A DNA stretch of 64,000 nucleotides, taken from positions 576,001 through 640,000 of the forward strand of contig JASGHG010000001.1 of NCBI GenBank assembly GCA_047602425.1, given 5' to 3'. Below the pieces are notes generated by a model that saw nothing but the letters and a program-made list of their open reading frames with translations, had not been told where the DNA came from and did no database searches. A program made the position numbers and the translations under genes. Source of the stretch: Nibricoccus sp. Its GTDB lineage: Bacteria; Verrucomicrobiota; Verrucomicrobiia; Opitutales; Opitutaceae. Position 1 is the first letter of the stretch, and every line of letters starts with the position of its first letter. This document shows positions 33,309-63,316 of this stretch, piece after piece.

Positions 33309-33472
33309 GGACGACAGAAACCAGATGCCAGAAGCCAGCGGTCGGAGGTCGGAAGCAGAAGCTTCACGACACTTGAACGTTCAGCGTTAAACGTTAAGCG
33401 TTGAACATTTCCCAATTCCCCATTCCCCCATTCGACGTTGGAGGTTGAATGTCGGGCGTTGGATGTTCAGCG
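33309..33472. repeat. Mosaic of four short tandem arrays (7-mers and 8-mers) downstream of prfB
   Basis: AGAAACC AGATGCC AGAAGCC AGCGGTC GGAGGTC; TTGAACG TTCAGCG TTAAACG TTAAGCG TTGAACA; TTCCCCAT-like x3; TTCGACG TTGGAGG TTGAATG TCGGGCG TTGGATG TTCAGCG. Confidence 0.85.
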
Positions 33473-43644: not shown

Positions 43645-46551
43645 TCAGGGTGCCATTGTATCCAAGGCCTCGGAAAGAGGCTGAGCATTTGTTGCCTTTT
43701 GATCAGCAGGCATGGGCGTTTCTTGGTAAGCGCCCCGACGCACCTCGCGTTCGGGTAAGTCAGAGGTATCACGGGGTTTTTGAGGGTCAACCACGGGTTT
43801 GGGCGGAGGAGGCGGTACCGGCGGCGGCGGACCGGCGTAAAAAACCTTCAGCTTCTCAATTTCGAACCAGCTCTTCTCCGCGGGGCGTTCGCGAGGCAGC
43901 AGGACCTGACGTTCCAACACGCGCCGGTTGCGACCGTCGTAAAGCATGATCCCCGAACCATCCTTTCCGCCCACGGGCACGGCGATGAGCGCATCGACCG
44001 TGCTTTGCTGATAGGGCAACAGCAGGCGCTGGCCGTCAATCAACGCGCGGGCAACGTCGTCGGGCGTCGCCGGTTTCACATCCATCAACGGCACGGAGGG
44101 GGCCGCCGCCGGGCGCGCCACGCTCCAACGAGCGCGCGGGCTGACGGGACTGTCGTAGAAAACATCCTCAAGGGTGCGCTCTTCGCCGGGCGCGGCAGGC
44201 GTCAGGGATTTTTCAATGGCCCGCAAGACTGCGGTCTGCGGATCGACGGGCGCGATCTCGGATTTTGCCGTGAACGCTTGCTGAATCCGACCGCCCACCG
44301 GCACCAGCAGGACAAGCAGCCAGACAAACACCGCGCAAAACCAGGCCGGCAGCGCCAAGCCAGCCGCGGGCAGAGGTGCCGGAGCAGGCTTGAGCGCAAG
44401 GCCGGCGGCTTCGTGGTAGATGGCAGAAAGTTCGTTAATGAGATCTCGCTGAGAAACGGGTTTGCCCGCGCCGGCGAGCAACGTGGCCGCCTCATTTTGT
44501 CCGCGCAAAAGAGGCGTGTTGAAACGCCAGGGCGCGGCGGCGGGCGCGTGCCGGCGAACCAGGAGCGTGAGCCATTTCCCCGCGGTAAAACGCAGCGCGA
44601 CAAAAACCACCACGGCGCCTGCGAGCCAGAGCGGAAGCTGTGCCCATTGCCTGAGCGCGGCGGCCGCGAGGCCCAAAAGCAGCCAGCCGCCCAAAAGGTA
44701 TTTCCAAGGTCCAAAAAGCACATAACCACAACGCATCGCCTGAGCCAAACGCAGCCAGAAGAGCGCCTGCGAAAGTTTTTCCGCGCGCTGCCGCAACTCC
44801 TCGTAGCGTTCTTTTCGATAATTCTCGTGGGTGATGTAGCCGTAACGTTCCGGTTGGGCGGCGGTCGAAGCGAGCAGCACGAGTTCCGCATTGGTCAATC
44901 GCGGCTGGGTCAGCAGATGCTGGATGTGTTTTTCCCGACTGCAGGCAAAGCGCTCCTGCAAACTCTTGCGCACATCGAAGAGCTTGCGCTCCCCTTCCAT
45001 CGCGAGCAGCAGAAGCCGGGCGTAATCGGCCGGATTGGAAAGATCGAGCCAGCCCTGGCTGATCGCCACCGAAATAGCCTCCCCGCTGACCGTGGCGCCG
45101 AGCGTCGAAAGCAAACGCGCCGCATCCGGGTCGGCCTGCTCGATCAGCTTAATATAGGGCTTTGCCGTAAGTGCCTTGACCATGGCCACGCCGCTCGCGA
45201 CGCCACCGCGCGCAAAAAGGCCCTTCACACACGCCGCGTCGACGCGTTGGCCAAAAAGCGTGAGCTTCGCGTCCTCACCGCCGAGCAACAACCACGCCGC
45301 AGCGGCAATCACCGACTCGCGTGCATCCGTCGGCAGATCCTTCCAACTCGGGATCTGCATGAACTTGTGCAGTTCCTCGATCTTGTCCCGCACCTGCCGG
45401 TACTCGGGACGGTCACCGACGAAATAGACCAGTGTGGTGGCGTCGTCGGTCGCGAAAAGATTTTTCACGCCATCCGCCCATTCGGCGTCGTGCGTGAAAA
45501 ATTCCGCCGCCTCCGCGACGGTGAACATGCGATCCTTCCAGCCAAAAAGCTGTTCGTTGCGCGCCAATTGATAGCGATCCTTGACCGGCTGCTGCTTGAG
45601 CCAGCGCTGGATTTCATCCGTGCCCCACCGGCCGTCGCGCGAACTCGTAAGCAACCCGCGCAACAAATCCGTCAACCGCTGGCTCATCGGCGGCATCAAT
45701 TCCACCGCGCCCGCGCGTGGCGCCTTCGGATCGCGTTCCAACAACAGCGCCTCGGCCCGCGTCCGCACTTCAGGCGACTCCAGCGAGATGTCGCGGTTCA
45801 TGACCAAGCCCAGGACATGGCGGCCCAGGGTCACTTCCTGCAAAATGCGTCCGAGCGACCACCAATCCCACGCGCGCAAGCCTGCCCCTGGCGAATGTTT
45901 CGACAAACCCGCGGCCTCCGGCGGCGCGTAAAGGGGGTCGACAGGCATGGGAATCAGGCCCGGTTGATTGTACAGCGTGACAAACTCCAACCCTCCCACA
46001 ATGATCTGCGCCACGCTGCCCTCGGCCGGAAGATAAATTGTCTCTGGTCGAAGGTTCAGGTGAACCAGTCCGCGATCGTGCATCGCGATGAGGGCATCTC
46101 CCACCTGACGAACGATGTGCTCGATATCCTCGATCGTGGCTTTGCGGCAGGCCGCCCATTCATGCAAAGTCGTGGCCGGCAGCGGCGGCGTGATTTCAAA
46201 ACGAAAACCGTCTTCTTCGACCGCTTCGATTCCCCGCAACACACCGGCCCGGCTCATCGAATGCAGTTCCTGCCAAGCCTGCGTCCGGACCGCGCTGTCA
46301 TCGCCGCACGGCATGATGCGGATCTGCACGTCCTCCAACATGCCGACATTCACGGCGTGATATAACCAACCGATTTCCGTATCGATTTGATCGCCGATCT
46401 GGTAATTGCGCCAGCGCTGCCCCGCCGTCACTGGCGAACGCAAAGGCCTTATCGCCGCCGACGGCTCCGCCCCGGGAGACGTTACTTGTTCAGGCAACGC
46501 CTCTTGCGGCGGCAATGCAGCCGTTTCCGGCGAATCGGGCACGTCGGGCAT
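43645..46551 (-). CDS. Membrane protein with an N-terminal Ser/Thr kinase-like (probable pseudokinase) domain
   Basis: GLVHLNLRPETI, YAPPE, WDWWSLG, LLRGLL..RW; about three TM segments; Pro-rich tail. Confidence 0.75.
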   Translation of the reverse strand: MPDVPDSPETAALPPQEALPEQVTSPGAEPSAAIRPLRSPVTAGQRWRNYQIGDQIDTEIGWLYHAVNVGMLEDVQIRIMPCGDDSAVRTQAWQELHSMSRAGVLRGIEAVEEDGFRFEITPPLPATTLHEWAACRKATIEDIEHIVRQVGDALIAMHDRGLVHLNLRPETIYLPAEGSVAQIIVGGLEFVTLYNQPGLIPMPVDPLYAPPEAAGLSKHSPGAGLRAWDWWSLGRILQEVTLGRHVLGLVMNRDISLESPEVRTRAEALLLERDPKAPRAGAVELMPPMSQRLTDLLRGLLTSSRDGRWGTDEIQRWLKQQPVKDRYQLARNEQLFGWKDRMFTVAEAAEFFTHDAEWADGVKNLFATDDATTLVYFVGDRPEYRQVRDKIEELHKFMQIPSWKDLPTDARESVIAAAAWLLLGGEDAKLTLFGQRVDAACVKGLFARGGVASGVAMVKALTAKPYIKLIEQADPDAARLLSTLGATVSGEAISVAISQGWLDLSNPADYARLLLLAMEGERKLFDVRKSLQERFACSREKHIQHLLTQPRLTNAELVLLASTAAQPERYGYITHENYRKERYEELRQRAEKLSQALFWLRLAQAMRCGYVLFGPWKYLLGGWLLLGLAAAALRQWAQLPLWLAGAVVVFVALRFTAGKWLTLLVRRHAPAAAPWRFNTPLLRGQNEAATLLAGAGKPVSQRDLINELSAIYHEAAGLALKPAPAPLPAAGLALPAWFCAVFVWLLVLLVPVGGRIQQAFTAKSEIAPVDPQTAVLRAIEKSLTPAAPGEERTLEDVFYDSPVSPRARWSVARPAAAPSVPLMDVKPATPDDVARALIDGQRLLLPYQQSTVDALIAVPVGGKDGSGIMLYDGRNRRVLERQVLLPRERPAEKSWFEIEKLKVFYAGPPPPVPPPPPKPVVDPQKPRDTSDLPEREVRRGAYQETPMPADQKATNAQPLSEALDTMAP

Positions 46552-46710: not shown

Positions 46711-48066
46711 TCAGCTCTGCGCTTCGATGAATCTGCGGACCGCTTCGACGGTTGCGGGGATGCGGTGTTTGTCGAGTCGCTTGGATTTCAACGCCTCCAA
46801 CGCCGGATGCGTGGCTTCGCGGCCGATGGCCAGTTTAATCACATCGGGAAATTTTGCGGGATGCGCGGTCGACAAAACGACGCTGGTGCGGCCAGGCGCG
46901 AGGTCCTTGAAACCGCAGGCAGTGTGCGGATCGACGACGTATCCATATTTCGAATGCACGTCGCGGATGATCTGCGCGATCTCGGCGTCAGTTGTGCGCG
47001 ACGCCGTGAAGCTGTCGCGGTTGAAATTCGGAAAAGTATAGCGGCCGGTTTTTTTGAACTCCGCCATGATGGCGCGAACGCGGGCGGGATCGCGGTTTTC
47101 GGCGAAATAAATAAACCGTTCGAAATTGGACGCGACCTGAATGTCCATCGACGGGGCGTGGCTGGGATGCACATCCGCCACGGAATAATCGCCAGTCGTG
47201 AAAAGACGGTAGAGAATGTCGTTCTGGTTCGTGGCGACGCGGAAGCTTCCGATCGGCAGGCCCATTTTTTGCACCAGCCAGCCGGCGAGGACGTTGCCGA
47301 AATTACCGGTAGGGACAACAAATTCCACTTTTTCCCGCGCTTCTGGCGGCAACCGCAACCAAGCGTAGAGATAGTACACGCATTGCGCGAGCACGCGGGC
47401 CAGGTTGATGGAGTTGACCGCGCTCAGCCGGTGGCGGGCGCGAAAATCCTGGTCCTCGAAAATAGTTTTGAGGGCGGCTTGCGCGTCATCGAACGTACCC
47501 TCGACCGCGAGGGCGAAAACGTTGTCGGCACCGGTGCAAGCCATCTGGCGTTCCTGCAGCGGCGAGACGCGGCCGTCGGGATAGAGGATGAAAATTTTCG
47601 CGCGTGCGCGGTCGAGCAGGCCGTGGATGGCGGCCGCGCCGGTGTCGCCCGAGGTGGCGCCGAGCACGGTGAGCGACTCGCTGCGGAGCTCGCACTGGTG
47701 CTCGTAGAGGTTGCCAAGGAGTTGGAGAGCGAAGTCCTTGAAGGCGAGCGTGGGACCGTGGAAGAGCTCGAGGACCCAAGTGTGTTTGTCGAGCTGCTTG
47801 AGCGGCGCGATATCGGGGTGATCGAAGCGGGTGTAGGATTTTGCAACGATGGCGCGTAGTTTTTCGGCCGGGATATCGGTCGCGAAAATTTTCAGAAATT
47901 CGAAGCAAAGTTCCGGGTAACTGAGCTTGGCCCAGGAAGTGAGCTTGCCCGAAATATCAGGCAGGCGCTCCGGCAAAAACAAACCACCGTCAGGAGCGAG
48001 CCCGGTGGCCACGGCATCGGAAAAACTGAGCGCTGGGGTTTGTCCGCGGGTGGAAATGAATTTCAT
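46711..48066 (-). CDS. thrC: Threonine synthase
   Basis: MKFISTRG, GLAPDGGL, ELFHGPTLAFKD, ATSGDTG, NSINLAR, VPTGNFGN, STAHPAKF. Confidence 0.97.
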   Translation of the reverse strand: MKFISTRGQTPALSFSDAVATGLAPDGGLFLPERLPDISGKLTSWAKLSYPELCFEFLKIFATDIPAEKLRAIVAKSYTRFDHPDIAPLKQLDKHTWVLELFHGPTLAFKDFALQLLGNLYEHQCELRSESLTVLGATSGDTGAAAIHGLLDRARAKIFILYPDGRVSPLQERQMACTGADNVFALAVEGTFDDAQAALKTIFEDQDFRARHRLSAVNSINLARVLAQCVYYLYAWLRLPPEAREKVEFVVPTGNFGNVLAGWLVQKMGLPIGSFRVATNQNDILYRLFTTGDYSVADVHPSHAPSMDIQVASNFERFIYFAENRDPARVRAIMAEFKKTGRYTFPNFNRDSFTASRTTDAEIAQIIRDVHSKYGYVVDPHTACGFKDLAPGRTSVVLSTAHPAKFPDVIKLAIGREATHPALEALKSKRLDKHRIPATVEAVRRFIEAQS

Positions 48067-48075
48067 GGTATGAAA

Positions 48076-48117
48076 AGATGCCAGAAGCCAGAGGCCGGGG
48101 GCCAGAAAGCGGAGGCA
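48076..48117. repeat. Heptamer array, downstream arm of the four-helix-bundle cassette
   Basis: AGATGCC AGAAGCC AGAGGCC GGGGGCC AGAAAGC GGAGGCA. Confidence 0.85.
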
Positions 48118-48140
48118 GTATCAAAATAAAGAGTCAGATA

Positions 48141-48602
48141 TCAATCCCGAGAACGGGCGTCACGCAGCAAGAAAGGTTCTGGTTTACTCATAATGCTGCC
48201 GAGCATACGCCCAACCTCGCGCATGTGCGCGTGAACAGCGTCGAAATCCGTTGACGCCAGATAGCCGTGATCTCTCGCGAACATCAGCCAGTTTTCGGTC
48301 TCCAGAAGCTCAGTGTCGCTATCGGAAAGTTTGCTGACAAAGTGCGCTTCGTACCGGCGCTTACCCCAAGCTTCCGCAATGTTAGCGCTTATAGAGCGTG
48401 AAGAGCGCCGGACTTGATCGGTCAGCGCATATTTTTCTTCACGCGGCCAATCCTTGGAAAGCGTGAAGACATGGCGGCCAAGATCAAAGGCCTTCTTCCA
48501 AACGTGAAGGTCGGTAAAATGTCGGATCGGCGCCGAAGTTTTATTTCCGGCATCCGATTTCTGACTTCCGACCTCCGGAATCTGGCCTCTGACTTCCGGC
48601 AT
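48141..48602 (-). CDS. Four-helix-bundle protein (23S rRNA IVS protein family)
   Basis: FTDLHVWKKA, PREEKYALTDQVRRSSRSISANIAEAW, ETENWL..A...GY; N-terminus encoded by the heptamer array. Confidence 0.92.
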   Translation of the reverse strand: MPEVRGQIPEVGSQKSDAGNKTSAPIRHFTDLHVWKKAFDLGRHVFTLSKDWPREEKYALTDQVRRSSRSISANIAEAWGKRRYEAHFVSKLSDSDTELLETENWLMFARDHGYLASTDFDAVHAHMREVGRMLGSIMSKPEPFLLRDARSRD

Positions 48603-48611
48603 CTGGCCTCT
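48543..48611. repeat. Heptamer array, upstream arm of the four-helix-bundle cassette
   Basis: Minus strand AGAGGCC AGATGCC GGAAGTC AGAGGCC AGATTCC GGAGGTC GGAAGTC AGAAATC GGATGCC GGAAAT. Confidence 0.9.
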
Positions 48612-48615
48612 TGTT

Positions 48616-49830
48616 TTAGCTGCGATCCAGCCCGAACGCCGTATGCACCGCACGAGCGGCTTCATCGGCCTTCGCTTGGGCGATGGAGACGGTGATCTTG
48701 ATTTCGGACGTGCTAATGAGGTCGATGTTCACGCCGGCTTCGGCGAGCGCTTGGAAGAGCGTGGCAGCGACACCGCTGTGCGTCTTCATGCCGACGCCGA
48801 CGACGGAAAGTTTGGCGATTTGGTCTTGGGAAGAGATGGAGCCGCCAAGTTCCTTCAACACGGGTTCGAGCGCGCGGGTGGCTTTGTTAACCTCGTTGGC
48901 GGGCACCGTGAAAGTGAGATTCGCCACGCCGTTGTGGCCGACGTTCTGCACGATCATGTCGACCACGATGTTGGCGCCGGCCAGGGCCTTGAAAACCTTG
49001 GCGGCGGAGCCGGGTTTGTCAGCGACGTTGCCAAGGACGACCTTGGATTGGTTTTTGTCGATGGCGACACCGCGCACGACGACTTTTTCCATGGAGGCGA
49101 CTTCTTCTTTCACGATGGTTCCTGGGTTGTAATTAAAGGAGGAGCGAACTTCAAAAACGACGTCGTACTTCTTGGCGAACTCGACGGAGCGGTTTTGCAT
49201 GACCTTGGAGCCGGCAGAGGCGAGTTCGAGCATTTCGTCATACGAAATCTCTTCGATCTTGCGGGCGTTTTTCACGATGCGCGGATCGGCAGTGTAAACG
49301 CCGTCGACGTCGGTGTAGATTTCACATTTGTCCGCCGCGATCGCGCTGGCGATGGCAATGGCGCTGAGATCCGAGCCGCCGCGGCCCAGCGTCGTGGTCT
49401 GGCCTTCGGCGGTGATGCCTTGGAAGCCGGCGAGAATGATGACGTTGCCAGCGTTCAGGTCGGCTTTGAGTTTCGTGGCATCGATCGAATGGATGCGGGC
49501 CTTCGTATGGGCCTTGTCGGTCAGAATACCGGCCTGCGCGCCCGTGTAGCTAATCGCCGGAACGCCGATGGCTTGGAGCGCGATGGCGGTGAGGGCAATG
49601 GTTTCCTGTTCGCCGACTGCGAGGAGCTGATCCATTTCCCGCTCGCTGGGCAGCGGGGTAATCGCTTCGGCGCGGGCAATAAGTTCGTTGGTCACGCCTG
49701 AGCGAGCCGAGACGACGACCACCATTTGGTGACCTTCGTCGCGATAGGACTTGATGCGCTCAGCGACTTTTTTGATGCGTTCGACGTCACCTACGGAGGT
49801 GCCGCCATATTTTTGGACGATGATGGCCAT
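48616..49830 (-). CDS. lysC: Aspartate kinase
   Basis: VQKYGGTSV, TTLGRGGSD, YTDVDGVYTADP, two ACT domains, STSEIK. Confidence 0.97.
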   Translation of the reverse strand: MAIIVQKYGGTSVGDVERIKKVAERIKSYRDEGHQMVVVVSARSGVTNELIARAEAITPLPSEREMDQLLAVGEQETIALTAIALQAIGVPAISYTGAQAGILTDKAHTKARIHSIDATKLKADLNAGNVIILAGFQGITAEGQTTTLGRGGSDLSAIAIASAIAADKCEIYTDVDGVYTADPRIVKNARKIEEISYDEMLELASAGSKVMQNRSVEFAKKYDVVFEVRSSFNYNPGTIVKEEVASMEKVVVRGVAIDKNQSKVVLGNVADKPGSAAKVFKALAGANIVVDMIVQNVGHNGVANLTFTVPANEVNKATRALEPVLKELGGSISSQDQIAKLSVVGVGMKTHSGVAATLFQALAEAGVNIDLISTSEIKITVSIAQAKADEAARAVHTAFGLDRS

Positions 49831-61694: not shown

Positions 61695-63185
61695 ATGGTC
61701 GCCGCTCCTGTTTCCTCCCCCGCAGCCAAATCCGAGGCCAAACATGGCATCTTCAAGCCCTATGAAACTAAGGCCTACTTCGACGAAATGCTAACCACCG
61801 AGGGTGACGTCCGGCAGCACTACGCACGGTTCATCGAGCATTTTAGTTCACTAAGTCCCGAAGAATTTAACGCCAAACGCCACGCCATCGACCTCGCGTT
61901 CCTCAAACAGGGCATCACCTTCAATGTCTACGGCGACGCCCAAGGCACGGAGCGCGTTTTTCCGTTCGATCTCATGCCACGCATCATTCCCTCTGCGGAA
62001 TGGGAGCATCTGGAAAAAGGCCTTATTCAGCGCATCACCGCGCTGAACATGTTCCTGCACGATATCTATCACGAGCAGCACATCATCAAGGACGGCACGA
62101 TCCCCGCGCACTACGTTCTCTCGGCCCGGCATTTTCGCCGCGAGTTCGTTAACTTCGAGGTGCCGAAAAACGTCTACATTCACATCTGCGGGTCCGACAT
62201 CATTCGTGATGGAAAGGGCCAGTACCTCGTTCTCGAAGACAATGGCCGCTGTCCATCGGGCGTCAGTTACGTGTTGGAAAATCGCCGCGCACTCAAACGC
62301 ACCTTCTCCGACAATTTCGAGTCGATAGGCGTTCGTTCGGTTGAACATTATCCGACCGAGTTGCTCAATCTGCTCCAGCATGTTTCACCTACCGGCGTCT
62401 CCGAGCCCAATGTCGTCTTGCTCACGCCCGGCTCCTACAATTCCGCGTATTTCGAGCATACCTACCTCGCGCGCCAGATGGGCATCGAGATCGTCGAGGG
62501 GCGCGACCTCCTCGTGCGCGACCAGCGCGTCTACATGCGCACAACCAAAGGACTGCGCCAGGTCCACGTCATTTATCGCCGCATCGACGACGATTTTCTC
62601 GACCCCACCGTCTTCCGCAAGGATTCCGCGCTTGGTGTGCCCGGATTGGTTGGCGCCTATCGCGCTGGCAACGTCTCGCTGGCCAATTCCATTGGCACCG
62701 GCGTGGCCGACGACAAGGTCATGTACTATTTCGTGCCGAAGATGATTAAATATTATCTCGGCGAAGATCCGATTCTGCCAAACGTGCCAACCTACCTCGC
62801 GAACGAGGAGTCCGACCGGAAATATATCGTCGAACATATTGAAGAACTTGTCGTCAAAGCTGCCAACGAAGCCGGCGGTTACGGCATGCTCATGGGGCCG
62901 CAGGCTTCAAAAAAAGAATGTGATGACTTCCGCGCCAAAGTTCTCGCCGAACCGCGAAACTACATTGCCCAGCCGGTCGTCAGCCTCTCGCGCCATCCAA
63001 CCTACTGCGAGAACCAATTCGACGGCCGCCACATCGATCTCCGTCCGTTCGTCCTTTTTGGGGAAAAGCCCGTGATTATTCCGGGCGGTCTCACCCGCGT
63101 AGCCCTTCGCGCCGGCTCGCTCGTGGTCAACTCTTCGCAGGGCGGCGGCTCCAAGGATTCCTGGGTGCTGTACGGGGACAAATGA
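61695..63185 (+). CDS. Circularly permuted type 2 ATP-grasp protein
   Basis: [60 protein letters not shown]. Confidence 0.93.
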
Positions 63186-63190
63186 TGAGC

Positions 63191-63316
63191 AGTAGTTAGT
63201 ATATGGCAGTTGGTGGTTAGCATAAAAAGCCAACATCAGACAACCGACCTACCAGCTATTTCATACTCACGACCAACTACTACCTACTAGATACTAGCTA
63301 CTAAATACTAACTACT
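63191..63316 (+). repeat. Inverted heptamer-array hairpin (empty element)
   Basis: AGTAGTT AGTATAT GGCAGTT GGTGGTT AGCAT ... ACCAACT ACTACCT ACTAGAT ACTAGCT ACTAAAT ACTAACT ACT; outer 12 bp perfectly complementary. Confidence 0.88.

Follow-up and report, generated by a model that had tools for sequence, protein, structure and literature searches.

A four-helix-bundle gene framed by inverted heptamer arrays between lysC and thrC: a candidate selfish mini-element with its own repeat word

What is a small four-helix-bundle (FHB) gene doing in the gap between lysC and thrC, and why is it enclosed by two complementary arrays of a seven-base word? The question arises in a Nibricoccus genome, in a window of 64,000 nucleotides (by which we mean the whole stretch of DNA that was analysed). 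According to the original prediction the gene is an intervening-sequence-like cassette, looped out of the lysC-thrC messenger RNA by its arms. Below, this genome is called G000 and its relatives carry other G numbers.

An FHB gene between complementary heptamer arms

The predicted order of parts (lysC stop, heptamer arm with the FHB start inside it, complementary arm, thrC) was borne out, coordinates included (Table 1). A spacer of 4 nt separates the end of the lysC stop (48616) from the 5′ arm, and 9 nt separate the end of the 3′ arm from the thrC ATG (48066). Nine of the ten RGANNYC-type heptamers claimed in the 5′ arm are exact and the tenth has one mismatch; the complementary array at 48117-48076 is present, with only three exact units and three degenerate ones. 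The FHB ATG (48602) falls within unit 2 of the 5′ arm and is the sole canonical start codon in frame close to the conserved core, another ATG (48665) overlapping the end of lysC. Units 2-10 encode the N-terminus of the protein, of which residues 1-22 are predicted to be disordered (pLDDT < 50). The cassette lies outside any rRNA gene and encodes no nuclease, recombinase or polymerase. Within 47800-48900 there were no long repeat pairs besides the arms, an Rfam scan returned nothing at E ≤ 1, and a promoter and terminator scan stayed at chance level.

Table 1. Features of the locus and related loci (window positions unless contig C1 of G000 is given)
Feature	Location	Strand	Basis
lysC, aspartate kinase, upstream host gene	48616..49830	-	NCBIfam PRK06635 577 bits + gene call
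5′ arm, purine-rich RGANNYC-type heptamers	48542..48611	-	
FHB gene, Avd fold, 153 aa	48141..48602	-	TIGR02436 / PF05635
3′ arm, pyrimidine-rich complement	48076..48117	-	
thrC, threonine synthase, downstream host gene	46711..48066	-	TIGR00260 254 bits
One array of this heptamer family without a gene, then arrays of two other heptamer words (to 33433)	33316..33350	+	
Inverted hairpin of a different heptamer word (AGTTGGT type) without a gene, in a stop-to-start gap	63185..63316	+	
Non-coding repeat of ~120 nt	G000:C1 323079-323299, 840353-840747, 1332852-1333132, 1589131-1589294, 4219009-4219318, 5047357-5047556		
GxxExxY genes L262-L266	G000:C1 1210100, 1214802, 1622126, 3800207, 4331872		

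Two further observations concern the rest of the window. Three different heptamer words are stacked as arrays in a single intergenic region (33316-33470), and directly 3′ of thrC (43645-46551, minus strand) lies a gene whose product, of 968 aa, has a Ser/Thr kinase-like domain at its N-terminus; matches of this protein to MAD6 and LanL are weak and far under cut-off.

The FHB protein scored 103 bits against TIGR02436 (cut-off 24), 110 bits against PF05635 (cut-off 33.8) and 41 bits against bAvd; its score of 40 against NF033474 (Avd) is under the cut-off of 80. The modelled helices span residues 33-49, 54-80, 85-111 and 117-139. The model's best structure matches are 2GSC (XCC0516) and 2RLD (BT_0352), and it also matches DGR Avd (4DWL; rmsd 1.6 Å over 109 columns), as expected of a family said to share that fold. 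No catalytic fold was found among these structure matches, and neither a family nor a fold match to the Y1 (HUH) tyrosine transposases was obtained. FHB homologues have been solved as pentamers. GC3 is 57% in the FHB gene compared with 73-75% in lysC and thrC. Against the closest orthologue, dN is 0.042 and dS 0.68 (dN/dS about 0.06); by this measure the protein is maintained under strong purifying selection, and the gene is therefore not simply silenced.

Junctions were compared in relatives by searching 41 genomes, in 36 of which thrC was found, and 30 loci were examined. Six carried an FHB gene with arms, frameshifted in one case; another six had no lysC upstream, two held other genes and 16 held no gene, so that gene-free junctions make up 16 of the 24 loci having lysC upstream. 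Among these 16 are seven short plain spacers, three hairpins of other heptamer words, two remnants of the RGANNYC word, three sites with 9-mer-like arms (by eye) and one junction, in G007, that retains just 13 N-terminal FHB codons. A protein search of species genomes, confined to the best 80 of 255 relatives, placed 13 analysed copies at lysC-thrC, one of them (L159) with the gene inverted, and more distant FHBs (about 45-60% identity) between dozens of unrelated gene pairs across several phyla. In the thrC tree, filled and empty junctions are sister tips. The thrC of G004 is 94% identical to that of this genome, yet its FHB groups with that of G020 (support 0.97); the identity of the G004 FHB is understated owing to how its frameshift was handled.

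Operon junctions gain and lose cassettes, carry them inverted or exchange one for another. For this junction the simplest history, judged from the tree and the occupants, would be an old insertion followed by repeated loss, some replacement and one inversion. The suggestion of a mobile cassette, for which empty sites or different cargo in relatives had been proposed as a check, is upheld: both occur, the unit is discrete, polymorphic and exchangeable, and most family members have arms.

Arms, words and repeat load across genomes

FHB genes were drawn from an HMM survey of the 41 genomes (115 copies: the best-scoring 110 of 162 matches, plus this genome's own and the junction loci) and from the protein search (78 copies), which is skewed to the clade of this FHB and used a query containing arm-encoded residues. 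The 214 hits included 200 distinct ones, and 193 were used after duplicates, broken genes and contig-end copies were removed. Arrays of period 7 above the 99th percentile of shuffles occur on both sides of 115 of the 193; other copies have 6-, 8- or 9-base periods. In 105 cassettes the arms form inverted pairs, the purine-rich arm coming first in 98. These arms abut host codons, with median gaps of 2 nt to the upstream stop and 6 nt to the downstream start; an arm lies within 15 nt of the stop in 60 of the 105 and of the start in 64. The modal number of units per arm is five, in a distribution truncated by the detection threshold.

Every FHB lineage is accompanied by a repeat word of its own. 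Arm 4-mer similarity is 0.07-0.13 below 40% protein identity and 0.6-0.8 above 60%. The correlation of arm word with protein has a Mantel rho of 0.57 (n = 105), or 0.23 in the HMM-picked subset (n = 53), against null maxima of 0.14-0.15. One and the same word recurs across several phyla where the flanking genes are unrelated (42 of 71 protein-picked loci versus 7 of 115 others). Within this genome four of the five FHB genes proved to be armed, each with a word of its own, when all family members were surveyed as the original prediction had proposed; the fifth has no arms. Copies armed with AGTTGGT and with GGTGATG are among them.

One of the armed genes (L003, G000:C1 4405390-4405710) is antisense to both neighbours, a second orientation-free case. 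In another cassette (L001) translation of the dTDP-glucose synthase-like gene downstream begins within the 3′ arm (G000:C1 4322387-4322414), which encodes both its start codon and its initial residues. Fold-back of arms seeded from upstream host sequence showed no excess over foreign flanks (104 and 105 arms), and an outer-to-inner gradient of unit degeneracy was not significant. A tblastn search of 50,697 phage records gave zero FHB matches. Plasmid records gave 32, mostly cyanobacterial, and four of the five inspected had G-rich/C-rich arms (by eye).

The layout extends to a second protein family. In this genome each of the five GxxExxY (PD-(D/E)XK) genes sits between inverted 9-mer arms, again reaching from a stop to a start codon, and pheS-pheT holds a GxxExxY cassette here and an FHB cassette in G004 and G020 (by eye). 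GxxExxY genes with their 9-mers are probably a parallel cassette class, having pheS-pheT and probably lysC-thrC as junctions in common with FHB.

Heptamer arrays are also dispersed through the genome, where gene calls came from a hexamer model built for it. There are 72 clusters of period 7; periods 5, 8, 10 and 11 have 0-9 each, and the codon-multiple periods 6 and 9 have 38 and 41. The RGANNYC word occupies 33 sites, of which nine are inverted pairs (purine arm first in 9/9) and 24 are single arrays. In-frame arrays of this word lie in ispG, uvrA, smc, hrpA, scpB and the genes for a topoisomerase A subunit and a WD40 protein, and gene-less hairpins of the cassette's heptamer sit in frame within uvrA, hrpA and the WD40 gene. 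When four insert-bearing genes were compared with five relatives, the inserts were found in this genome and, for three of the four, in G002, which has an intact cognate FHB; the orthologues recovered from G001, G003 and G004 have no insert. Inspection by eye of four filled and empty in-gene sites revealed no target duplication. Ten gene-less hairpins were searched for a common loop sequence and had none, nine loops being single-copy and one matching a separate repeat.

Other words also form in-frame inserts (G000:C1 1080628, in prfC, and 4309148, 120093, 3146263 and 4909386); some have no obvious cognate FHB in the genome, and five relatives lack the one in prfC. A non-coding repeat of ~120 nt, sometimes tandem and largely restricted to this genome among five searched, abuts pyrimidine-form heptamer arms and is possibly REP-like cargo.

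With the origin placed by GC skew, parS, mnmE/gidA and the orientation of 16S/rRNA and tRNA genes, the purine form lies on the leading strand in 20 of the 22 single arrays that have no weak partner, in 8 of 9 in-gene arrays whatever the gene strand, in the longer arm of 8 of 9 inverted pairs and in 18 of 21 clusters of other words. The genes themselves are near 50:50 between the replication strands. For relatives, with parS as origin, the counts are 9/9 in G007, 5/6 in G004 and 9/16 in G008, G269 and G118 having been excluded as too fragmented. Single arms follow replication direction in two of the three genomes with enough sites, this one included.

Repeat load was counted as triple-heptamer matches in 251 family genomes and set against close FHB homologues (E ≤ 1e-30); 83 genomes had a match and 59 a close homologue. 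At least 40 matches, which exceeds what one cassette supplies, occurred in 10 of the 59 genomes with a close FHB versus 1 of the 192 without, and at least 80 in 7 versus 0; these genomes are kin, so p-values overstate the difference. All ten of the heaviest loads are accompanied by an FHB homologue. Heavy heptamer loads thus occur almost only alongside a close FHB. Loads are extreme (244-557 triple matches) in G011, G140, G106 and G020.

How the arrays may arise and spread

We favour, at a probability of about 0.55, a selfish unit similar to REP/RAYT systems, in which the FHB pentamer reads its own heptamer array in single-stranded DNA at the replication fork and host errors spread the arrays. 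Both the binding and every enzymatic step that follow are ones we infer. The pentamer would recognise about five units of its cognate array when the nucleic acid is single-stranded, the likeliest such substrate being DNA laid open at the fork, and the bound FHB would seed, stabilise or expand arrays by slippage or template switching of the host polymerase. Whole cassettes, having no nuclease, recombinase or polymerase gene of their own, would depend for most of their movement on host recombination via the arms and the conserved genes on either side. The RNA stem would be a by-product of the inverted arms rather than a selected feature, and it could make insertions tolerable by closing the gap between stop and start codons and, in rRNA, by being trimmed by RNase III. 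In-frame hairpins in conserved genes, an inverted copy and the replication-strand bias point to DNA-level behaviour. The available text of a preprint on Avd (bioRxiv 2023.10.23.563531) describes five protomers that hold flipped-out bases via the same residues, and by analogy the modal five units per arm fit a pentameric reader. These data suggest a selfish or semi-domesticated mini-element.

Several observations do not sit easily with the REP/RAYT-like reading. Arrays are scarce or missing in many genomes that possess a close FHB: zero matches were counted in 22 of the 59 carriers, and 5 of the 23 closest have no arrays at all. Conversely, G007 has arrays and no TIGR02436 match, and strand bias may therefore reflect host decay of hairpins after loss of the FHB. 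The bias is absent in G008, weak in G004 and unreported in Xanthomonas in the available source. Tracking of word and protein is also expected from plain co-inheritance, and no catalytic fold was found in the FHB. Finally, the sole structural precedent, Avd, binds RNA, and for this reason an alternative based on copying from RNA was kept.

In this alternative, which we regard as unlikely, the FHB binds its arms in RNA in the manner of TRAP or Avd, and a stem-closed RNA released by RNase III is recopied by a reverse transcriptase (RT) acting in trans; copying would proceed from host 3′ ends, single arms being truncated copies primed at the fork. It draws on Avd being an RT cofactor whose RNA stem-loop is bound by all five protomers, in the available account, and on the RNase III cut in Coxiella described below; an RNase III gene is present here, and the fixed polarity (98 of 105 cassettes, and all nine hairpins in this genome) is what 3′-end priming predicts. 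The three heaviest loads among the 41 genomes (this genome, G011 and G020) each coincide with a strong RT match, which here is the genome's single RT, a group II intron-type reverse transcriptase/maturase (L260, G000:C1 924805-926679) about 300 kb from the cassette. However, an RT was found in only 17 of the 41 and in none of the FHB-rich G022, G024, G025, G009 and G015 (91-98% complete) and G002 (88%). This count does not support a resident RT as a requirement. Furthermore, the stems have no sense-strand G-U bias, and the loops of gene-less hairpins resemble neither the cassette nor each other.

The idea behind the original prediction was that the stem is selected within the mRNA, for RNase III cutting or tuning of thrC together with silencing of the FHB start. 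The claimed 21-nt pairing is indeed predicted in its register: on the sense strand the stem has pair probabilities of 0.84-0.97, takes in the FHB ATG and ends 9 nt short of the thrC ATG. Folding both strands, the proposed check, gave a stable sense strand (z = -4.0, 100 shuffles) and an antisense strand that folds equally well (z = -4.4; arm duplex -69.1 versus -67.7 kcal/mol) with the register shifted by one heptamer. The two G-U pairs, offered as confined to the sense strand, are therefore no evidence of strand selection; a strand-neutral alignment of these arms has two G-U, three A-C and two transversions. Nor did strand-biased pairing emerge from all 105 stems, where G-U pairs on the FHB sense strand number 193 versus 225 A-C (p = 0.13) and the sense duplex is superior in only 40.

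Covariation between arms was likewise slight. In the 52 cassettes with same-word comparators, the cassette's own partner beats same-family foreign ones in 57% of comparisons, with a gain of 2 points in Watson-Crick fraction (p = 0.014), and both arms of the uvrA insert carry one word variant in G000 and another in G002. Whole-flank duplex z-scores are weak (median about -2) because flanks of 200 nt dilute the arms, and they carry no weight here. Sequestration of the start codon is predicted in this copy, but only 25 of 103 cassettes have their start within an arm, and the gene is under purifying selection. Since there is no G-U bias, the partner advantage is 57% and few starts lie in arms, the arms act like a single word arrayed twice in opposite orientations, and not like a finely co-evolved RNA helix. 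In addition, hairpins are kept in frame in uvrA, hrpA, prfC and the WD40 gene, whose messages a cut would destroy, and the cassette has been repeatedly lost and once inverted. We therefore consider selection for an mRNA intervening sequence improbable, even though its arms abut stop and start codons.

About as improbable is passive hitch-hiking, in which slippage-prone arms are inherited with a gene of unrelated function and host errors and gene conversion spread an imported seed: co-inheritance by itself predicts that word tracks protein, the G007 arrays persist, strand-biased, without an FHB match, and pure runs such as the 21 consecutive heptamer matches in G269 resemble slippage, but this leaves unexplained the near-universal inverted, fixed-polarity arms around the FHB family, the single word at unrelated junctions across phyla, and the same layout, in 9-mers, around an unrelated PD-(D/E)XK family.

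The REP/RAYT-like reading can be widened, tentatively and with doubt, to FHBs as drivers of bacterial heptamer repeats, in which the pentamer and a host or borrowed polymerase write or expand the FHB's own word at DNA 3′ ends near the fork. If true, one process yields the cassette's arms, gene-less hairpins and in-frame protein loops; the ORFs of rRNA intervening sequences (IVSs), the Xanthomonas GGGAATC family and the cyanobacterial heptamers would be products of one undescribed element class, with GxxExxY nucleases and 9-mers a parallel one.

Comparison with known systems

The heptamer array is a concrete candidate ligand for a very widespread FHB family that has solved structures and no function, and the gene-plus-repeat system suggests a testable origin for bacterial seven-base repeats, whose over-representation was noticed and left uncharacterised by Rehm et al. 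according to the available text (PMC4692102). ORF-bearing rRNA IVSs would become one site among others at which a general cassette lands, and the arrays would supply conserved proteins, UvrA, HrpA and RF3 among them, with new in-frame loops. A literature search, with subscription journals mostly outside it, found no description of the cassette or of a link between FHBs and heptamers.

DGR Avd (4DWL, 8UB7/8UBB) has the same fold and, in the available parts of PMC6182149 and bioRxiv 2023.10.23.563531, is a pentamer gripping nucleic acid with equivalent residues of different protomers. In contrast to a DGR, the cassette has no adjacent RT, template repeat or variable repeat; its neighbours are lysC and thrC. 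Like Rickettsia palindromic elements and MITEs, as far as the accessible part of PMC10969869 describes them, it is associated with hairpin DNA in frame within unrelated conserved genes; unlike them, its copies are built of tandem heptamers and have no common internal sequence or visible target duplication.

The nearest repeat families are GGGAATC of Xanthomonas and GGGGAYT of Nostoc (PMC4692102). The available text on Xanthomonas campestris (Rehm 2015) lists 186 GGGAATC arrays and 70 convergent inverted pairs. As with our word, arrays there are dispersed and some are intragenic, and the G-rich form follows stops while its complement precedes starts. The differences are that they were read as G-quadruplex repeats, whereas RGANNYC has no G-tracts, and that Rehm et al. 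report, in that text, no leading/lagging bias. From the load pattern we predicted that GGGAATC would flank an FHB gene in Xanthomonas. This held for XCC0516, the crystallised FHB: in the consulted portion of the supplement an array lies 6 nt after bccP and overlaps the XCC0516 start, an inverted partner being unrecorded there, and the main text, in its available form, does not mention "helix bundle".

In Coxiella burnetii, the accessible text of PMC4990558 describes a 23S rRNA IVS with an S23p ORF that is cut by RNase III at the first heptamer. The likeness is close: the same protein family, a terminal complementary stem enclosing the ORF, and purine-rich tandem heptamers (GACAGAT) of variable unit number just 5′ of the start codon. 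The rRNA IVS seems to be one of the places where this cassette lands. On the other hand, the cassette lies between protein genes, its excision is only putative, its protein is under purifying selection and its word is a genome-wide repeat family.

REP/RAYT systems provide the other close parallel, in that the cognate repeat is abundant where the gene is present (Nunvar 2010, PMC2817692, as available). Both consist of a small gene flanked by inverted repeats with which it co-evolves, both have gene-less repeat pairs scattered between genes, and in both the load tracks the gene (kinship being uncorrected in our counts). They differ in that the cassette protein is an Avd-fold four-helix bundle with no known catalytic activity and RAYT is an IS200/IS605-type tyrosine transposase, and in that the cassette's repeats are tandem heptamer arrays and REPs are single palindromes. 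The cassette is therefore neither an rRNA IVS, by its location, nor a REP/RAYT system, by its enzyme, nor a DGR or a MITE; it works like the first two.
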